From Octopus vulgaris (Eukaryota): a stretch of DNA of 64,000 nt. The stretch spans positions 28,086,001-28,150,000 of the forward strand of contig OX597820.1 in the NCBI GenBank assembly GCA_951406725.2. The letters are read 5' to 3'. Positions 32,683 through 55,988 of this stretch are shown in pieces; positions within the stretch are counted from its first letter, which is position 1, and the number at the start of each line of letters is the position of its first letter. The position numbers and the translations under genes are program-made. The notes under the pieces were generated by a model. That model searched no databases. It was not told where the DNA came from and saw nothing but the letters and a program-made list of their open reading frames with translations.

Positions 32683-32973
32683 AGGCGTTGATCTAGCAGA
32701 ATCGTTATCACGCCGGGCAAAAACGTTTACTCTTTTACTATTATACTTGTTTCAGTCATTTGACTGTGGCCATGCTGGAGTACCGCCTTTAGTCGAGCAA
32801 ATCGCCCCCAGAGCTTATTCTTTGTAAGCCTAGTACTTATTCTATCGGTCTCTTAAGCCGAACCGCTAAGTTACGGGGACGTAACACACCAGCATCTGTT
32901 GTCAAGCGATGTTGGGGGGATAAAACAGACACACAAACGTATACATACACACACACATATATTTATATATATA

Positions 32974-33012
<39 letters not shown>

Positions 33013-33330
33013 CGGGCTTCTTTCAGTTTCCGTCTACGAAATCCACTCACAAGGCTTTGGTCGCCCCAAGGCTATAGTAGAAGACACTTGCACAAGTTGG
33101 CACGCAGTGGGACTGAACCGGGAACCATGTTGTTGGTAAGCAACCTACTTACCACACAGCCACCTCCTACGCCTATACCAGCATTTCGTTCATCTTTACG
33201 TCCTGAGTATATATTCCACCGAGGTCGACTTTGCTTTTCATTTTTTTTTGGGGGGGGTCAATAAAATAAGTAGTAATGAGTCGATGAAATTTACCTAAAC
33301 ATTTCCTCGAAATATCTATCCTTGTGCCAA
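32683..33330. mobile_element. SINE family 2 (minus, about 32730-33176) nested inside an older family 1 SINE (plus)
   Basis: Family 1 head stops at about 32729 and resumes at about 33177 (gcatttcgtt...ccgaggtcgactttgc). Confidence 0.85.
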
Positions 33331-37407: not shown

Positions 37408-38178
37408 CAGGCGGCGAGCTGGCAGAAACGTTACCACGCCGGGCGAAATGCTTAGCTGTATTTCGTCCGCCGCTGTGTTCTGAGTTCAAATTCCGCCGAG
37501 GTCGACTTTAACTTTCATCCTTTCGGGGTCGATAAATTAAGTACCAGTGACGCACTGGGGTCGATACAACCGACTTAATCCGTTTGTCTGTCCTTTTTTG
37601 TCCTCTCTGTGTTAAGCGCGTTGTGGGTAGTAAAGAAATAGGTATTTCGTCTGCCGTTACGTTCTGAGTTCAAATTCCGCCTAGGTCGACTTTGCGTTGC
37701 ATCCTTTCGGGGTCGATAAAATAAGTACCAGTTACGCACTAATGTCCATATAATCAACTTAATCCGTTTGTCTGTCCTTGTTTGTTCCCTCTCTATGTAG
37801 ACCCTGTGGGCAGTAAAGAAATCAGAAACGTTAATACACCGGGCGAAATGCTTAGCGGTAGTTCGTCTGCCGCTACGTTCTGAGTTCAAATTCCGCCGAG
37901 GTCGACTTTGCCTTTCATCCTTGCGGGGTCGATAAATTAATTACCAGTTACGCACTGGCGGTCGATGTAATCGACTTAATACCTATGTCTGTCCTTGTTT
38001 GTCCCCTCTGTGTTTAGCCCCTTGTGGGTAGTAAAGAAATAGGTATTTCAACTGTCTTTACGTTCTGAGTCGACTTTTCCTTTCATCCTTTCAGGGTCGA
38101 TAAATTAAGTACCGAGATCAATCTATTTGACTGACGCCCTCCCCCCAAATTTCAGGCCTTGTGCCTAGAATACAAAAT
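37408..38178 (+). mobile_element. Tetrameric family 1 SINE array with 17-bp TSD
   Basis: Four head-to-tail units. TSD attatagtagatatttt at 37391-37407 and 38179-38195. Confidence 0.9.
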
Positions 38179-38811: not shown

Positions 38812-38951
38812 GGAGGTATTTGGGTGTGTGTGTATGCTTATTTTTAACAGGAATATATTTACGTTTATATTCTTTCACACTTTCACTCTTTTTGTCTTTT
38901 TCTTTGACTTACTGTTATATGCGATACTTATCCATAGATTTTTTTATATAA

Positions 38952-39095
38952 CAACCACATAGTTCCGGACTCATTCCCACTACGTGGCACCTTGGGCCAG
39001 TGTCTTCTGCTATAGCCTCGGACCGACCAAAGCCTTGTGAGTGGATTTGATAGACAGAAACTGAAAGAAGCCTGTCGTATATATGTTTGTATGTA

Positions 39096-39170
<75 letters not shown>

Positions 39171-39362
39171 GAGTGTATATGTTTGTGTGTCTGTGTCTAT
39201 CCCCCCAACATCGCTTGACAACCGATGCTGGTGTGTTTACGTCCCCATAATTTAGCGGTGCGGCAAAAGGGATCGCTAGAATAAGTCCGGGGATCGATTT
39301 GCTCGACTAAAGGTGGTGCTCCAGCATGGCCACAGTCAAATGACTGAAACAAATAAAAGAGT
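38952..39362 (+). mobile_element. SINE family 2 with expanded internal (TA)n
   Basis: Family match on both sides of the microsatellite at 39078-39180. Confidence 0.88.
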
Positions 39363-40214
39363 ATATGTATGTATGTATGTATGTATATGTGAGTGTGTAA
39401 GCGCACATGTATATGTGTGTGTATGTGCTTCTTTTTAATGGGAAGATATTTACGTTTATATTTCTTTTCCACGTTCATTCTTTTTGTGTCTTTTTTCTTT
39501 CATTTACTGTTATACACGATATTTATCCATAGATATTTTTGATATTACATATCACATTCATGTATTATTTCGTAATACACATTTATATTACATGCCCTTG
39601 GCATTCTCGAAATCCACTTTATCATATAATGAATAATATTTCCGCTCCTGTTTGTCTGTTGAATAATGGAATCTGTCGGATTTTTTTTTCTGAATAGTTA
39701 CATCAAGAATCTATAGATCCGCTTAAATACAAAGATACAAAAACATCATCACATATTCAAGTAATAAAATCACCGCATAGCATGCCGTTAGATTTTGTTG
39801 GGTCAAGCAACTTAGACTGGAATAAAGCTTACATTGCGGTGCCAACTTCTGACATCTCTGGTATATTTTTTTCATGCGTATTGTATTTTTAACTTTGATC
39901 GGACGAATATATTTATAAAGAAAAAGTACATTAATTACCAAATCTCGTAATTGAACTTTTTCTCCATAATATCTCCCGCCCTGACATCCTGACTATTTTT
40001 TTTTATCTAACAAAAAAAAAAAAGATAAAACATCTAGAGAGATTTCGTGACTGCAGAGTATGTCCTCGCATCATGACAGATTTGTACTATAAGATCGTTA
40101 TCTATTTTGAGTTTGTGGAGATTAATTGAGCATTTTATCCACAATGCGTTGCTATGACCAACACCACTACCATTACCACAACCACCACCATTATCATCAT
40201 AATCATCATCATCG

Positions 40215-40274
<60 letters not shown>

Positions 40275-40401
40275 CAACCCTGATTGTGCTGGTCATCAAC
40301 ATGAAGGACATCATTTCCATCATTAACAATTCTACATTCTTTCCTGTATTATCTTTCATAATTATCAACATCACCATCATAGTTAAAAGAATACAAGTAT
40401 A

Positions 40402-41036
40402 AGGTGGCGAGCTGGCAGAATCGTTAGCACGCCGTGCGAAATGCTTAGCATTATTTCGTCTGCCGTTACGTTCTGAGTTCAAATTCCGCCGAAGTCGACT
40501 TTGCCTTTCATCCTTTCGGGGTCGATTAAATAAGTACCAGTCACACACTGGGGTCGATATAAATGACTTAATCCGTTTGTCTGTCCTTGTTTGTTCTCTC
40601 TGTGTTTAGCCCCTTGTTGGTAGTAAAGAAATAGGTATTTCGTCTGCCGTTACGTTCTGAGTTCAAATTCCGCCGAGGTCGACTTTGCCTTTCATTATTT
40701 CGGGTTCGATTAAATAAGTACCAGTTACGCACTGGAGTCGATATAATCGACTTAATCCGTTTGCTTGTCCTTGTTTGTCCTGTCTGTGTGTAGTCCCTTG
40801 TGGGCAATAAATAAATAAGAAACGTTAGCACGCTGGGCGAAACGCTCAGCAGTATTTCGTCTGCTGTCACGTTCTGAGTTCAAATTTCGCCGAGGTCGAC
40901 ACTGCCTTTTATCCTTTTGGAATCAATTAAAGAAGCACCAGCTACGCACTGGAGAGTAAATGTAATCGACTTAATCCCTTTGTTTGTCCTTGTTTATCCC
41001 CTCTATGTTTAGCCCCCTTTGGGTAATAAAGAAATC
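40402..41036 (+). mobile_element. Trimeric family 1 SINE array with 12-bp TSD
   Basis: Three units. TSD aatacaagtata at 40390-40401 and 41037-41048. Confidence 0.9.
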
Positions 41037-43068: not shown

Positions 43069-43146
43069 CATAAGCATTAATAAAATTGACAGAAGCGTTA
43101 GAATTACCTTTCAGAAACTAATGGGATCTCACAGTATCTACAATTA

Positions 43147-43712
43147 TTGGGTTGTCCGGAAAGTTCGTGCTGATTTATAGTAGCTTAAATTTCGACTTAT
43201 TTTAGAACATGGTTGAGTCCATAAAATAGGATTTGACTACACCACCATTTAGAGCACAGTTTAAGCTATCTTTTCGTGGAAGAAGGTTTATGTTCCTATA
43301 AACTGTGTTAATTCTGTAACCCTTTAAAATGGAAGATAAGAAAGTTCATTTTCGGCACTTGATGCTTTGGGAACCAGACAAAAATTGCTGCAGCTCGGCT
43401 GGGATGTCTTACCCCACCCTCCATATTCACCAGATATTGCTCCTTCGGATTTCCATTTATTCGGGTCTCTGCACAATAGTCTTAATGGTAAAAATTTCAA
43501 TTCCTTGGATGACGTACAAAGATACCTTGATGAATTCTTTGCCATGAAACCACCTCAATTCTGGGAAGAGGGTATTTTTAAGTTAAAGGAAAGATGGAGA
43601 CGCATTGTGCAACAAAATGGCTCATATTTGGTTGATTAAAAATGTAATGGCAATTATTTATTGACCTTTTACTTTTCTTTACATGTCGGCATGAACTTTC
43701 CGGACAACCAAA
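43147..43712 (+). mobile_element. Internally deleted mariner (mellifera-subfamily-like), 566 bp
   Basis: TIRs ttgggttgtccggaaagttcgtgctga / tcggcatgaactttccggacaaccaaa with TA TSD. MEDKKVHFRHLMLWE is fused to KLLQLGWDVLPHPPYSPDIAPSDFHLF...ERWRRIVQQNGSYLVD. Confidence 0.95.
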
Positions 43713-44853
43713 TAGTTTACACGGTGACAGACCTGTGTGTATTTGTGCGTGTGAGTGTATGTGTATTTGCGCGCGCGCGCGTGCGTGTGTGTGTGTATGT
43801 GGTGTACATGTCATTTGGTGCACTTATAAATATTTACCATACAGAAAGCTTTTCGAACTCCTTCCTTAGAACATCTCACTCCGCTTGAAGTTCTCTGTTT
43901 CTCTCAATCTGTTTCCAGTCAGTTTGTAAAAACATTGCTTTTTCCCTCTATTTTTTCTGCTAACCTTCTTTAAAATGCACTTTAATTATCCTTCCTTGTG
44001 TATGAGATTGAAAGATTTGAGATTTTGATAATTTCCTAACACCTTGAAGTCTGCTCTGAATCTCCGTTTTTATTTTTTGCCAAATAGAAGCTAAATGATG
44101 ATCGTTTCAGATGAGATTTAGGTTGATCGAGCTGGCCATATGATAAGGCAAGTACTAAGTGAGTGCAGACTTGCATGCATGTGAATACATACGGCTCTAT
44201 GTTTGTGTATAGATATACCTTGGTCCACTAAAGTCTAATCGATTATTGTTCTAATTAATAAGTCGTATAGCGATATTGCTCAACACTATACTGTATCATT
44301 TCCATGTATGTACTTACGCGTGTAAATCTTTGTGGCCATGTTAGACCCACAAGCGGAATTTAGAATCTAATTCAAGAAGAAAGAGGAAGACATTGTCTTT
44401 CGGAGCAAATATTTCGTATGGTTCTTTCTGTACAGCACTTTATTTCTGGAACAACATCTGGATATATATTGCACACCAAAACTCTGAATCAGCCCGCAAA
44501 ACTTGATTGAGGAATTATGTGATCATCTACGAAAGATTAAAGAAGGATATATTACTATATAAACCCAAACTAAACTTGAAGTACTCAATACAGCTATTAT
44601 AAACAACTACGTCTTTATGGATTACACTGTAATAAGTGTTTCAAAAAGTTTCCAACACCGAAAGCGTTAAAACGCAGTACGAATATTTATTTCTAAAAGG
44701 TTCCTAGCATTGTATTTTTGCTTTGAATTTTTACGTAGTTAATTGTGCTTCATTTACGAGAATCAATATTTAAATATTGTAAGTTTATCAAGTGTTCTGT
44801 ACAAAGACTTACATACATAGATACACACATACATACATACATATATGCATACA

Positions 44854-45039: not shown

Positions 45040-45790
45040 CATGCAATATTATTATTTTTCCATAAACTTTTTCCTGCTATTATAAGACAACAAAGCCGGT
45101 GGGAGGGGTTATTTGGACACTTAAAATGATTCAAGAAAATAAAACGAACGAAAAAATTTGTCCGTATATTAAAAGTTATTGTGTTTTTGTAGAGAAATAA
45201 TGAACAAACAATTTGGAATCGGGAGACTTTCATTGAATAACGGAAGCAACATATAAAAGCTTAATTTGATGAAATGGCTGAAATATATTTTTGACATAAA
45301 TGATGACAGCTGGAAATATAATTCCTACATAACTAAGTGCTATTGAATTATTCTAATACACATCATAATAGAGTGTACTGCGACCAGCTTGAAAAAGCAG
45401 AAGGTTGGCGCTAGCGGGATAAACAAGCTGTTGGATATTTCGTTCGTATACATCTATGCACGATTGGCAGTGATTTCGAAGTTTTGGCCAGCTAAGCCGT
45501 CGTCCAACAATGGGTTAGCTGGCTAAGCCTGAGTCAGATCTATGGTTAAATTGAGGATTTGGTACTTACATATATGAAATAACCTTTCAAAAGTTGGTAC
45601 TTTCCTTGTTACTTTACCTCACTGTAGAAGATACGTTATGGAACCAAGCCATTTCTGGCGTCCAACGTGTTGATGTGCCTAGATTCTCGAGAATAGTGCA
45701 ACTGAGCTTTCTCTCTCTGCCTCTGTCTATCTGTCTGTCTCTCTCTATCTCTCTATCTCTCTCTCTTCATATATATATATATATATATAT

Positions 45791-46488
45791 TAATCAATAT
45801 GAGGGTAGTAAAAAATTCAATAGAAAATTTAATTAGGCTGATTTGCCAAAAGGTACGTCGAAACAATGCATTGTCCAAGGATTATTAGGGTAAATGTTTT
45901 TGATTTTCCTTTGATTTCTGAATTACTACTATTTAGCGGTTTGAGTTTGGCTGCTCTTTCTGGTGAGTCGAATGGCCTATCATGGCCATTCCTTAATATT
46001 TTTGAAATTATATATATATAGTCTGTGACTATTTTCTCTTTCTCACTAGACCGCTGATGGCGAAAAAAATTTCTATTGAATTTTTTGCTACCCTTAGATT
46101 GATTAATTAATGATTTTTTGACTACTTCTGAAATTAAATCAGCAGTTTATATTTGCTGCTGATAAGTTGGCGCGATTACGGTAGATTTTGAAAATTTAGA
46201 GTATATATTCCCGAGGCATCGATGAGGCTGCCTCGTGGAATATTTATTCCTCCTGGCCTCCTTGCCGATGAGACGAGCCAGAGGTAGATTGACTTGATTA
46301 AATTTAATTTAATTTAATTAGGCTGGTTTGCCAAAAAAGTACGTCCAAACAATGCATTGTCCAAGGATTATTAGGGTAAATGTTTTTAATTTTCCTTTGA
46401 TTTCTGAATTACTACTATTTAGCGGTTTGAGTTTGGCTCTTTCTGGTGAGTCGAATGGCCTATCAGGGCCATTCATTAATAATGTTGG

Positions 46489-46493
<5 letters not shown>
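45791..46493 (+). mobile_element. Second hammerhead-bearing partial-tandem element (period 486) with an inverted end segment
   Basis: 45826-46012 is repeated at 46311-46493. 45791-45828 is the reverse complement of 46068-46105. (TA)n on both sides. Confidence 0.82.
46260..46366 (+). ncRNA. Type I hammerhead with long loop II (mutated copy)
   Basis: CCUUG-CCGAUGA-GACG(long loop)CGUC-cAAA-CAAUGCAUUG-UC-CAAGG. The duplicate at 45856-45880 keeps the canonical CGUC-GAAA. Confidence 0.75.
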
Positions 46494-46545
<52 letters not shown>

Positions 46546-49524: not shown

Positions 49525-50219
49525 GATTAATACGTACATATATGCGTAAATATATGTGTGCGTGTGTGCGCGCATGTGCGTGTATATAAGGCAACAAGAG
49601 TTTATACTTATGCAGACAGAAATTCCTTCTAAACACATTCGCGCATGTACTGCACTAACGCACAGGTATTCGCACACACACTCATATATTTACACATATA
49701 TACAACGAATAAAACCCCCACACCAGACTCTCATACATGTGTTACACACTCCAATACAACGAAGCACACGCACGCGTACACACACACACAGGCGCACGCT
49801 AACCTTGCATCTGTCGTCTTCTTGTGCTAGATAGACACAGGGGTGACACAAGTTTCATGACCAGGCATTCACTCCAAACAACTCTTCTTTCGAATGCATC
49901 TGGTGTCGCTGCAATTGCCAATCTCACTCCTAACAACATGTGACTTGTCTTTACCAATAACGACCGATTTTAGACTTTACGTCTCCATTCAGTAATCTGG
50001 ACCTGAACGCGCAAGGTCTCTGTAAGAAGCCTGCGAAACCTTAAATCACAGGGAACCGAATCAAAATGTTTTAAATAAAAATGTATATAAATCGTATTTC
50101 ATATATTGAATGCCTTTATCATTTGTTTGTCCCGTTACTCGTACATATATATTCGTGTGTTTGTTTCTGTGTGTGTGCATGTGTGCGCGTGTGTGAGTCT
50201 GTAGGTATTAAAGGGTATA

Positions 50220-50450
50220 AGGCGGCGAGCTGGCAGAAACGTTAGTACGCCGGGCGAAATTCTCAGCAGTATTTCGTCTGCCGCTACGTTCTGAGTTCAA
50301 ATTCCGCCCAGGTCGACTTTGCTTTTCATCCTTTCGGGGTCGATTAAATAAGTACCAGTTACGCACTGGGGTCGATATAATCGACTAAATCCGTTTGTCT
50401 GTCCTTGTTTGTCCCTTCTGTGTTTAGCCCCTTGTGGGTAGTAAAGAAAT
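50220..50450 (+). mobile_element. SINE family 1 with TSD
   Basis: Flanks taggtattaaagggta / taggtataaaagggta. Confidence 0.92.
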
Positions 50451-50903
50451 AGGTATAAAAGGGTAAGTTCAACCATAGAAGTGAATATCATAGTGAAGAA
50501 GAAGGAGAGAGAGGGGAAGGGAGAATGAGAGGCGGATAACAATGTAAAATGGGTCGAAGTGATTCACCTAGAAAATAGATTAGGATTAGAATGTTCAAGA
50601 TCTTAAGTCTAATAATGAAATATGAAATGTAGATCAAATTATGAACGGGCGAATGACGAGAAGTAGAATATTAAAGTAAATAGGAACGTGAGGGTACAGG
50701 ACAATGCAAAGAAAGATAAGAGCGAAAAATAGTTCTTCGGTACATGAGACAACTTTTACAGATGCCAGTAGTTTAATTGCAGGAATACTGAAGAAGTTTA
50801 AAGAAGAGTTCAGGTCGGAGGGGAGAGGTAGGCTGAGAGGAAATATTAAATTTATGTAGAGGGGAAAAATCAGAGCAAAATCCATCATATTCGCTCTCCA
50901 TAC

Positions 50904-50936
<33 letters not shown>

Positions 50937-50937
<1 letters not shown>

Positions 50938-51112
50938 GGTGTAGGAGTGGTTGTGTGGTAAGTAGCTTGCATACGGACCATATGGTTCCAGGTTCGAGTC
51001 CCACTGCGTGGCACCTTCGGCAAGTGTCTTCTACTATACCCGACCTTGTGAGTGGATTTGGTTGACGGAAACTGAAAGAAGCCCTTCATATGTACGTGTG
51101 TGTACATATATG

Positions 51113-51205
<93 letters not shown>

Positions 51206-51375
51206 TGGTCAATCGCTTCACAACCGATTTTGGTGTGCTTACGTCCCCGTAAACTACAGGTTCGGCAAAAGCGATCGATAGAATAAGCACTAGGCTTAAA
51301 AAGAATAAGACCTGGCCTCGATTTGTTCGACTATAATGGCGGTGCGCCAGTGTTGCAAATAAAAGAATGAAAGAA
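50937..51375 (+). mobile_element. SINE family 2
   Basis: Head ggagtggttgtgtggtaagtagcttgc, internal TA/TG tract and tail. Confidence 0.88.
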
Positions 51376-51377
51376 AG

Positions 51378-51452
<75 letters not shown>

Positions 51453-52740: not shown

Positions 52741-53902
52741 GTGTGTGTGTGTTCGTTTTCACGTGAAAATGGCTGCGCAAATTGAATTGCTCCCATACTT
52801 GGAATGCATGAATAATTTAATCTCTGATACATAATAGGCTCTTCGCTTTATTTTTTTATTAAAAATAAATAATATTGCTTTCTAAATCAGATTCACATCT
52901 TTAAAAATGTTTCTTAATGTCAGCTTCCGGTATTGACTTAGCAACGGCGAAATTTTCCGTTTTCATTTGCGAAACTTCTCACACTATGTACTAATGTTTT
53001 CATTTCAAGTTTTAATTCGCTGTTTACAAACAACAACAATACGTTACTCATCGAAATATCCACTAAGTTCACAAATTTCGCTTGAACGCGTACACTTCAT
53101 GAATTTCCGTAAATCTTTTTTTCATTTAATGTTTGCGTGCCGTGTTCAGCTCTGTGTATTTCTAGTCACTCACAGACTATAATATTTATTATAGATTTAA
53201 TGTGGAATTTATATATATTTATCCCAAATATATATTTATCTCACATAGTATAGTAAAATCGTACTCCTTTCTGCCGTGATATTGTGCATACCAGAAGCAG
53301 AAATTTCTTATCAATATATTGCTTATAAATAGTTTAAAGCTGGGAGCGTATTCATTTACAAGTGGGATTCGCTTTTGCAGGAATAACAGTTACGAATGAA
53401 TAAAGATTGAAGGAAAGTCCTAGAAAATCGAAGGGTTGAAGTTTATAATTTTTTTATAATGATTCTGATAAATCTATTCCCTCTTAGAGACCAGTCTCAG
53501 AAATTCAACATAGCAAAACGCATAACTAGGCCAGGGACGCATAGAGTTTCTTCACTTTGAGAATATATGACTGTAAATATATTTTAACCTTATCTCAACT
53601 GAACAATAAAATTATCTATATTTATTAAGTATTGCAAACTGTTTCGATATTCAATAGAGCATAGAACTGCATTATTGCCGATGTCTTTCCTAACGGCTTT
53701 TTAATTGTCAGTTCAAATTATGTTAAGTTCAACTTTTAGCTCTTAAACTTTCTTGCTCGATAAAAATGTACGACTGAAAGATTGTGGTTAATATCATGGT
53801 TAACTTTAGGGATATTCCTCACAGTTTTCTTGTATTAGAATTTACTATTTAAATTGATATATAAACTGGAAAAACATACATCAATATTTTCAAATATTGT
53901 AA

Positions 53903-54114
53903 GGCGGCGAGCAGGCAGAAACGTTAAGCACGTCGGGCAAAATGCTTAGCGATATTTCGTCTGTCTTTACGTTCTGAGTTCAAATTCGCCGAGGTCGACT
54001 TTTCTTATCATCCTTTTGGGGTCGATAAATTAAGTACCAGTTGCGCACTGGGATCGATCTAATCGACTGGTCCCTTCCCCCAAAATTTCGGGCCCGGTGG
54101 CCAGAGTAGAAAAG
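53903..54114 (+). mobile_element. SINE family 1, alternative tail, with TSD
   Basis: Tail cccttcccccaaaatttcgggcc...gtagaaaag. Flanks aatattttcaaatatt / aatattttaaaatatt. Confidence 0.9.
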
Positions 54115-54745
54115 AATATTTTAAAATATTCTGTTATAAATTTCTTTACATATCTTCATTTATATTTACTCTCATATCATATGTGCAAGAAAAGGATCCT
54201 TGAAGTCGTCTGTTTCTGATTATCAGTGAAGATAAATAATAGATTTGTTAAGGAAAAATTTGAAAAATATATCATTCTTTAAAGTGCCAGTGATTAAGAA
54301 CCACCACCATAATATACAAACACGCTAAATATCACCTGCACATAAACTCACACACATGCACATACATACAAAAACATATATACATAGATACGCTCAGCGC
54401 AAACACAGATGATGCACATATTTTACACACATGTACGGACATACACACACACACTCCCCCCCCCCCCCACACACACACTTCCCTACCTTCAAAATGACAT
54501 TTTCTATCTCTCACCAAATACCACTTACTTAATGATTTGGTACGTAATAATACTCATGCTTTTTTCCGGATTCTCTGCTCTTTTTTCCTTTCCATTTTGC
54601 CTGGTCCTTTTCTTCTATCCGACTAAGAGCTATGGTCGCAACGTCATGGCGACTCCTATTGTTTATACAAGAACTTTCTCTGAGAGTCAATCTAATAAAC
54701 TATTTTCCTGTATATGTATTTTGCTATATATACATACATACTTAC

Positions 54746-54793
<48 letters not shown>

Positions 54794-54809
54794 CTGTGTG
54801 TGTGTATAC

Positions 54810-55500
54810 ATGAACGAAAACGCCTTGAACTCAGATCAATACTAATCAAAAGACGTCACCCAATATCATTATTAAATGATGGCATTAAACGAGCAAAGGA
54901 AATAGACATACGAACATTAAGGGAAGTCAACCGAAATACTGCACCAGACCTTAAAATACTCCCATACATCTCCACGCATAACCCTAGAAACAATGAAGCC
55001 TTCGACATTATCATACAAAATCTACGCATCCTCACAGGAGATAAGGCAATGAACAAAATTTTAGGCTCACACAAAATTATCAAACGCAAAATACAACCGA
55101 CATCATTGAAAACATATTACCCAGCGCAAGACTATATCCATTAACAACGGAACCAAAAGGGCAAACATGTGGTCGACCTAACTGTGGCACATGCCCCCGA
55201 CTTTTTGAGGGATCAGAGTTCCACTTTAAACAAGGTAAAATATTTAAGATTAAATAAAATTTCACCTGTGCCTCGGAAAACCTAATCTATGACATTACAT
55301 GGGTGTGGTAATCTTTATTATTAGCCAAACAGGAATATCATTCTGTCGAAGAACTACTCTCCACAAAGAATAATCCACCACCAAAATACAGATACAGATC
55401 AGTGAACACATTGAAAGGTGTACTAGGAACCTCAGTACAGCAACGAATGAATAAAGAGTCAACTTTCATCAATAAATATCTTCCACAACTCAATATGAAC
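54810..55500 (+). pseudogene. Penelope-like element (Neptune-type) thumb/linker, Zn-knuckle and GIY-YIG endonuclease fragment
   Basis: ELRSILIKRRHPISLLNDGIKRA...LPYISTHNP, then after frameshifts CGRPNCGTCP, NFTCASENLIYDIT..CG..Y..QTG, SEHIERC and ESTFINKYLPQLN. Confidence 0.88.
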
Positions 55501-55934
55501 ACACAACTTAATACAGAACACTACTAACCTTTCAATTAATACCACTAACCCCCATACATCCAATACACCATTCACATTACAGATCTATATCTACCCTAAT
55601 TGCACCAAATCCAGAACTACTTACCTCCCTTACACATAATCTTTTTACTCAGGAACTAGTAGACACGACACCGTTCGGTAATCTGTGCGTATTCAAAGCA
55701 GTGAATAGAAATTTTACGAAACCGTTATGCCTTTGAATCTATTTAACAATTCACAATAATGACGTTTATTATTTTATCCATGCCTCAGTTCATCCATTGG
55801 TATATATCTAACGTTACTTTTCAAAAAAATAATTTTGTTCTTATTTCCAATCTGCATTTTCGCTTCTTTGCCTTCTCACTTTCCCCGTACATTTCCACGT
55901 GCAGTTCATGCTTTCTTTTTATAACATATTTCTG

Positions 55935-55988
<54 letters not shown>

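Follow-up and report, generated by a model that had tools for sequence, protein, structure and literature searches.

A 486-nt hammerhead repeat in an octopus genome, probably a retrozyme inserted by Penelope-like machinery

Architecture of the insertion

An element built on a 486-nt unit spans positions 45791-46493 of the window, by which we mean the whole 64-kb stretch of DNA analysed here. As read from the sequence, it is bounded by a (TA)n tract on either side, at 45769-45790 on the left and 46494-46541 on the right. The original prediction had described a direct repeat of about 185 bp with a period of 486, and this is borne out. The repeat extends over about 195 nt (45826-46020 and 46311-46503) with identity at 183 of 196 alignment columns (93%), the two copies are nine substitutions and two indels apart, and the GUC cleavage sites at 45875 and 46361 are separated by 486 nt. 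By repeat alignment, the upstream partial unit, or pseudo-LTR, occupies 45826-46020 on the plus strand. It contains only the 3' half of a hammerhead, with an intact G12 at 45860 and a GUC site that ends at 45875. The full plus-strand monomer, 35% GC, lies between the two cleavage sites (45876-46361). The downstream direct-repeat copy (46311-46493, plus strand) stops at the monomer's internal AT run, about 100 nt before the likely family terminus. The locus amounts to about 1.4 units (1.37), with one full and one half ribozyme, and by the two-ribozyme test of Li et al. it does not qualify as an active locus.

The left end of the element is inverted. Positions 45789-45830 match 46066-46107 in reverse complement at 38 of 42 sites, and we annotate 45791-45830 on the minus strand as an inverted, 5'-truncated piece, the same joint being present in one contig of sequencing run X2. 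A Penelope-like inverted end of 38 bp had been proposed, and the proposal holds up, in that the piece fits the architecture described by Craig et al. (2021) and inverted joints recur in the contigs of the family. The outer end of the inverted piece corresponds to monomer position 46107 or thereabouts, which is likely to be the 3' terminus of the family. The right end of this copy is not at the proposed 46107 terminus, and when the two ends were compared for a 30-40-bp tail they differed by about 100 nt. Both ends sit in (TA)n, where a target-site duplication (more than 4 bp by the retrozyme criterion) is unreadable.

Within the monomer, a perfect 8-bp hairpin (45970-45991, plus strand) stands directly 5' of the TCCTTAAT motif. 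It is followed by a 3'-terminal region (45990-46107, plus strand) in which three motifs, at 45990-45997, 46046-46058 and 46088-46096, are common to a second element at 7649-8349 (local z 4.2-4.7); this region is a candidate reverse transcriptase recognition site. Folding places a long hairpin 5' of the ribozyme at 46199-46249 on the plus strand, with core arms at 46205-46218 and 46229-46243. The hairpin was already anticipated at 46205-46243, and the family letters at 46225, 46226 and 46228 in contigs of the sequencing runs support it.

The 486-nt unit has no coding frame, its longest stop-free stretch being 105 aa. A reverse transcriptase plus GIY-YIG frame was sought inside 45791-46493 and none was found, so the element is not an autonomous Penelope-like element. 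With respect to a tRNA-like head, as expected of a SINE, ARAGORN found no tRNA gene in the window, which is a weak test for decayed heads, and Rfam returned no tRNA match in the region of the element.

The hammerhead fold

Motif search, folding and family contigs identify a type I hammerhead fold at 46259-46367 on the plus strand. Hammerhead numbering and the term type II permutation are used here as in the cited papers and general knowledge. Stem I comprises 6 bp (46259-46264 with 46362-46367), and the fold is accordingly slightly longer than the 46260-46366 first proposed. Stem II pairs GACG with CGTC (46272-46275 and 46342-46345) and closes 66 nt, stem III is a perfect 12-nt palindrome (46349-46360), and the GUC site places the cut after 46361, all as predicted. 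The size given for the loop was right; that most of it is a 21-bp hairpin rich in G-U pairs (46283-46332, plus strand, by folding) had been missed. The core sequence had been overlooked as well: 46265-46271 reads CCGAUGA rather than CUGAUGA and so carries a U4C change. CAAA stands instead of GAAA, with C at 46346 as against G at 45860 in the upstream copy, so that the predicted mutation of G12 here and its integrity in the duplicate are both correct.

A descriptor that allows at most one core mismatch and demands a palindromic stem III matched the window twice (46259-46367, and 7958-7906 on the minus strand) and matched none of 30 block-shuffled windows; this contrast is flattered because the descriptor was composed after both motifs had been seen. 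The segment 46195-46372 folds with a z of -4.95, and none of 200 shuffles folds equally well. Rfam gave no hammerhead in the region, where it listed 7 matches with E allowed up to 5, and none among the 150 listed of 263 matches in the whole window, nearly all of which are microsatellite look-alikes.

In predicted folding, the best structure is 3.1-3.6 kcal/mol more stable than the hammerhead, the pairs of stem III have probabilities of 0.04-0.12 in the monomer, and stem I falls to about 0.16 with family-majority letters. Stem III alone is predicted to form no stable hairpin, and as a duplex it is predicted at -15.1 kcal/mol; cleavage is therefore likely to be dimeric, as for other animal hammerheads, which are described as acting as dimers (Perreault 2011; Weinberg 2019; Cervera 2014). 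The U4C change lowers hammerhead activity in vitro, yet it is tolerated by a viroid (Perreault 2011, PMC3088659), and eight of the nine Xenopus retrozyme dimers that were tested failed to cleave (Li et al. 2026, bioRxiv 10.64898/2026.07.22.740005). A 486-nt circle is predicted to fold at -134 kcal/mol, as compared to -102 +/- 6 for 40 shuffles. The intact 3' half at 45856-45881 can also pair with the 5' half at 46259-46275; the permuted hammerhead so formed, of type II, is predicted at 3.8 kcal/mol above the best fold, and through it the locus may still hold one complete core despite the G12C change.

A second element of like build

Repeat alignment, motif search and sequence reading identify a second element of like build at 7649-8349 on the minus strand (element A). 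It has a 512-nt monomer, a 196-nt repeat with 7 differences and (TA)n on both sides, and the inverted piece is absent. Its hammerhead (7958-7906) is a canonical type I with an undamaged core, a 10-nt palindromic stem III and a GUA site.

The original prediction regarded the two as sister elements on the basis of collinear motifs. The match is best at the 3' end (local z 4.2-4.7), and overall the sister claim is weakly supported (z about 3). When the monomers are phased at the cleavage site, three scoring schemes give z of 2.9-3.2, with the score reached by 1-2 of 300 shuffles; a fourth gives z of 1.0, with 50 of 300 shuffles reaching the score. One control segment of the window equals the 486-nt monomer against element A (294 against 293). 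For the 3'-terminal 125 nt, a stretch picked for motifs already noticed there, local z is 4.2 (2 of 2000 shuffles) and rises with family-majority letters to 4.7 (1 of 2000 shuffles, 0 of 3106 window segments), with a global z of only 2.1-2.5. The family letters at 46057 and 46097 improve the match. The aligned end of element A coincides with 46107, where the inverted piece starts, and the ends lie past the cut sites by 256 nt in element A and 232 nt in the 486-nt element. The end of element A is exactly half a unit from its cut site (256 of 512 nt). Common descent or a shared enzyme is likely for the two elements.

It had further been argued that every stem differs between the two elements and still pairs, as a sign of selection on the fold. 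We reject these stem differences as covariation because the two ribozyme regions do not align.

A Penelope-like remnant and other repeats in the window

Protein relatives and alignments identify a broken, 5'-truncated Penelope-like element of Neptune/Nematis type at 54790-55935 on the plus strand. Situated between microsatellite tracts, it retains the reverse transcriptase thumb, a CX4CxxC linker, a GIY-YIG remnant and a 3' region. A full phmmer search with the broken frame (54790-55500) found 241 relatives at E up to 0.001. Twelve of these were scanned, made up of the 8 longest and a further 4 from the best 150 of the 241; at E up to 0.01, GIY-YIG was present in 10, RVT_1 in 8 and both in 7. 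The scanned relatives align to the window over the thumb region and the CX4CxxC linker, which marks Neptune and Nematis elements according to Craig et al. (2021, PMC8557442). One relative, the single named one of 10 listed, is labelled Octopus sinensis; together with the heavy load of microsatellites, this label points to a probable octopus host. With the remnant as query, ESM Atlas gave a best score of 0.75, Pfam no families for two Penelope pieces, and the word-indexed protein search none of 185 candidates. A hammerhead was sought in 54790-55935 and none was found.

As a parent of the 486-nt element, this remnant was considered and rejected: its 3' region (55380-55940) is unlike either monomer, being no closer than shuffles in all four comparisons, and what it shows is the type of machinery. 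Two Penelope-related metagenome loci (L001 and L002) likewise have no hammerhead and no match to the monomer. Diverged direct repeats lie downstream of the Penelope-related match in L001 (4588-5062), with no hammerhead by the descriptor. In O. vulgaris, Bonar et al. (2026) report 190 Penelope-like families (6.83%), 31 of them with recent insertions.

The window holds several other repeats. A 200-aa frame at 5378-5980 on the plus strand contains a Pif1 2B domain (E 3.4e-09) and is likely a Helitron remnant. A 132-aa frame at 11633-12031 on the plus strand, which resembles a decayed piece of a LINE reverse transcriptase, matches nothing significant in Pfam. An abundant SINE-like repeat of about 240 bp occurs at 10108-10292, 25867-26091, 37409-38113, 40397-41035, 50215-50456, 53896-54119 and 56984-57207, with partial tandems at 37409-38113 and 40397-41035. 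A family of about 440 bp, at 70-86% identity, occurs at 22065-22500, 24075-24511, 32728-33177, 38949-39427, 50934-51449 and 58075-58500, and two of its copies are in inverted arrangement (23573-24493). A 580-bp repeat is present at 43142-43720 and 61787-62354 in opposite orientation, 89% identical.

The family in public sequencing runs

Part of the stretch is present in 20 of the 24 runs listed, under five organism labels and from ten studies. Four runs with three organism labels were aligned to one monomer (46000-46495) at 80% likeness, and 867, 542, 381 and 161 contigs fitted; only 3-7% of these continue into unlike sequence. The 486-nt unit is an abundant repeat family. Depth along the unit was not taken as copy number. 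None of the listed runs that contain the element is on record as RNA, and run X7 (161 contigs), merely guessed to be RNA, was not counted as evidence of expression.

The original prediction named a consensus lacking GAAA as one refuting condition. Position 46346 reads G in 100% of the depth in all four runs (10, 19, 19 and 5 contigs), and the family consensus has GAAA. G12 is intact across the family, and the C at 46346 is therefore damage to this copy. Runs X1 and X8 have four C-to-T places each, all accounted for at 46228, 46258, 46261 and 46362. As none of these is in the core, the family itself carries U4C in no fewer than two of the runs; X2 and X7 have one further C-to-T place each, outside the 40 of 60 rows listed.

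The stems vary within the family. The stem I pair 46261/46365, C-G in this copy, has T at 46261 in 84, 58, 83 and 88% and A at 46365 in 75, 23, 97 and 68% in the four runs. C46362T, found at 47, 84, 46 and 44%, leaves a G-U pair in stem I. T46344C, found at 0, 11, 16 and 49%, would break a stem II pair if 46273 stayed as it is, and the 40 of 60 rows listed include no compensating change at 46273. Loose ends, one in X8 that ends in GAAACGATGCATC and one in X7 that starts with TGCATCGTC, point to a subfamily with the third pair of the palindrome changed on both sides. Within the family, a pair in stem I and another in stem III thus exist in two pairing forms each, the changes being unphased. It is this variation inside the 486-nt family, rather than the comparison with element A, that argues for selection on the fold.

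Together, the overlapping contigs of the family extend over the entire unit, with no single contig spanning all 486 nt, and joints in the contigs go back 481-483 nt; from these two observations the unit is a fixed ring at the family level. No full dimer with two complete ribozymes was seen, the contigs being too short to show dimers. Opposite-strand joints are of four types. That of the window (46070/46312) is found in one contig of X2 at a depth of 18, and X2 may be the source of the window; the other three are found in one contig per run. Five of the 32 pieces listed stop at 46108-46111, one of them, on the plus strand, being followed by 40 letters that do not match, and in all four runs the depth there drops by 36-56%. 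The end-site listing of the family contigs gives no site where many molecules end. Depth stays fairly high from 46108 to 46170, past the likely terminus, with a second drop near 46170 in all four runs, a pattern that may reflect an extended form of the Penelope tail or stronger divergence beyond. Exact family patterns had no matches in metagenome contigs and none in viral contigs.

Discussion

The element at 45791-46493 is a decayed insertion of a non-coding, 486-nt repeat, probably a non-LTR retrozyme that was probably copied into (TA)n by Penelope-like reverse transcriptase/GIY-YIG machinery. Two sets of features lead to this reading. At the family level, the repeat has what defines a retrozyme, namely a type I hammerhead (with a U4C core) and a fixed, short, low-GC and non-coding unit. 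At the level of the insertion, a 5'-truncated partial tandem, an inverted 5'-truncated copy and a (TA)n target are marks of Penelope-like insertion, a pattern described by Craig et al. (2021, PMC8557442) and Goubert (2022). The reverse transcriptase/GIY-YIG remnant with its CX4CxxC linker, found among microsatellites of the window, also favours this reading. The (TA)n is found at both ends of both elements, which are only two insertions in a microsatellite-rich window.

In the mechanism that we propose, RNA transcribed over more than one unit would cut itself at GUC, probably in dimeric form held by the 12-nt palindrome, and the cleaved monomer would be ligated into a circle. A Neptune-type Penelope-like enzyme would nick the (TA)n target, and copying would begin near 46107, at a fixed site that lies 232 nt beyond the ribozyme junction and about half way round the unit. 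Continuing past one unit, it would yield the 1.4-unit partial tandem. The inverted piece would be a short second copy that began at this site too but was primed by the opposite strand, the (TA)n being identical on both strands. On the right, about 100 nt separating the internal AT run from the flanking (TA)n were probably lost, unless priming took place there, and the G12 change would have arisen after insertion. Because the insert passes the cut site twice and is longer than one unit, the template was a circle or an uncut multimer, or else the enzyme changed templates. A fixed terminus is likely, given the inverted piece, the weak alignment to element A, the five of 32 listed stops and the depth drop. 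If the direct copies were identical at insertion and have diverged at 0.0036 per million years, the rate that Bonar et al. (2026) quote for octopus, the insertion would be about 7 million years old.

Alternatively, the unit could belong, as pseudo-LTR and untranslated region, to an autonomous Penelope-like element represented here by partial tandems with strong 5' truncation. Autonomous elements share the same architecture (Craig et al. 2021, PMC8557442), most genomic Penelope hammerheads are single truncated motifs (Cervera 2014, PMC4209133), depth is uneven along the unit with a minimum at 46170-46290, and 229 loose ends lie outside the rows listed. Against this, family contigs from at least two runs bridge the junction after 46107, the unit closes on itself at 481-486 nt, and few fitted contigs enter unlike sequence. 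The lack of a coding frame also speaks against it, and so does the comparison with the window's single Penelope-like 3' region, which is unlike the unit; neither this remnant (55380-55940) nor L001 or L002 shows homology that would tie the unit to an autonomous pseudo-LTR. We consider this origin unlikely.

Spread at the DNA level, satellite-like or by rolling-circle DNA, with the hammerhead as an inherited relic that no longer cleaves, is less likely still. A fixed U4C, the unfavourable predicted folding and a Helitron-type Pif1 helicase fragment elsewhere in the window would agree with it, but G12 is invariant and the stems are paired across subfamilies and organism labels. In addition, the inverted piece and (TA)n target suit target-primed reverse transcription, and the copies here are dispersed 1.4-mers rather than arrays. 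That the fold arose by chance in AT-rich DNA, or that the inverted end is an assembly artefact, is very improbable and already largely refuted by the family contigs. Rfam has no hammerhead match, and X2, which carries the same inverted joint, may be the window's own source; against this, the descriptor found nothing in 30 shuffled windows, the family restores GAAA, and the inverted piece is not a fresh copy because 4 of its 42 sites differ from the source.

Beyond the retrozyme insertion itself, the two elements invite a joint reading that we offer tentatively, in which a Neptune-type enzyme enters the circles of several octopus retrozyme families at a single conserved site, the same for all. 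It is possible, if doubtful, that this site lies on the far side from the ribozyme junction, at the shared CTAGACC...CTACCCTTA end, and that both strands of (TA)n prime. That the ribozyme works with a fixed U4C core and the 21-bp loop II hairpin is a conjecture in which we place limited confidence; no such hammerhead build was found in the literature searched. If the joint reading is true, each such insertion would directly record, in the genome, the copying of a circular RNA by Penelope machinery, and the mechanism could be tested in vitro with a template of 490 nt.

Type I hammerhead repeats, or non-LTR retrozymes, and their link to Penelope-like elements are already published, and the novelty of the element was overrated in the original prediction. 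The 486-nt family opens no new class and is likely an added member of the retrozymes. The enzyme that moves animal retrozymes and the circular template have so far been matters of proposal (Cervera 2014, 2020), to which Li et al. (2026) contribute co-occurrence and homology. Craig et al. (2021, PMC8557442) see the next task in setting up an in vitro system for the tandem and inverted structures of Penelope elements. A short non-coding element that bears Penelope insertion marks, with a candidate start site away from the ribozyme junction, would be a small test substrate. The family also demonstrates that a 486-nt ribozyme repeat can escape Rfam and CUGANGA-based searches.

Comparison with known systems

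Hammerhead 1 matches number 235 in the giant squid genome paper. The text consulted of Bonar et al. (2026) and a search of its supplement by term gave no mention of hammerhead, ribozyme or retrozyme. No cephalopod retrozyme family was found in the literature searched, to which Repbase, Dfam and most subscription papers did not belong. No U4C/CCGAUGA core in an animal element was found there either; Lunse (2017) or supplements may describe one, or a long-loop variant.

The element closely resembles the metazoan non-LTR retrozymes (PMC7229834; Li et al. 2026). It shares with them a short, low-GC, non-coding unit with a type I hammerhead, the existence of many families per genome, a predicted highly paired circle, co-occurrence with Penelope-like elements and a proposed mobilisation by them. 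The units of 486-512 nt are longer than the 170-400 nt of invertebrate retrozymes (Cervera and de la Pena 2020, PMC7229834) and fall within the 51-972 range of Li et al. (2026, bioRxiv 10.64898/2026.07.22.740005). Unlike metazoan retrozymes, the insertions here are dispersed 1.4-unit copies with an inverted end, not arrays, and the ribozyme combines a U4C core with a 21-bp loop II hairpin.

Penelope-like elements of Neptune/Nematis type, which carry a C-terminal GIY-YIG (PMC8557442), also have a pseudo-LTR tandem, an inverted 5'-truncated copy, (TA)n and a hammerhead in the repeat. In contrast to them, the 486-nt element has no protein, a fixed short unit and no clear 30-40-bp tail, and no sequence link to a parent was found. 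Penelope-associated hammerheads are likewise type I, with a dimer-suited palindromic helix III, an enlarged helix II and core variants (PMC4209133; PMC3088659). Their palindromes are of 2-6 nt, as compared to 12 nt here with a loop II of 66 nt. The core change of the 486-nt element is at U4, a viroid variant cited by Perreault et al. (PMC3088659), and differs from the U3-A8 change reported for Schistosoma elements. The 486-nt repeat is a real and abundant family, likely of retrozymes, with an unusual ribozyme build and clear marks of Penelope-type insertion, and one that is probably undescribed.
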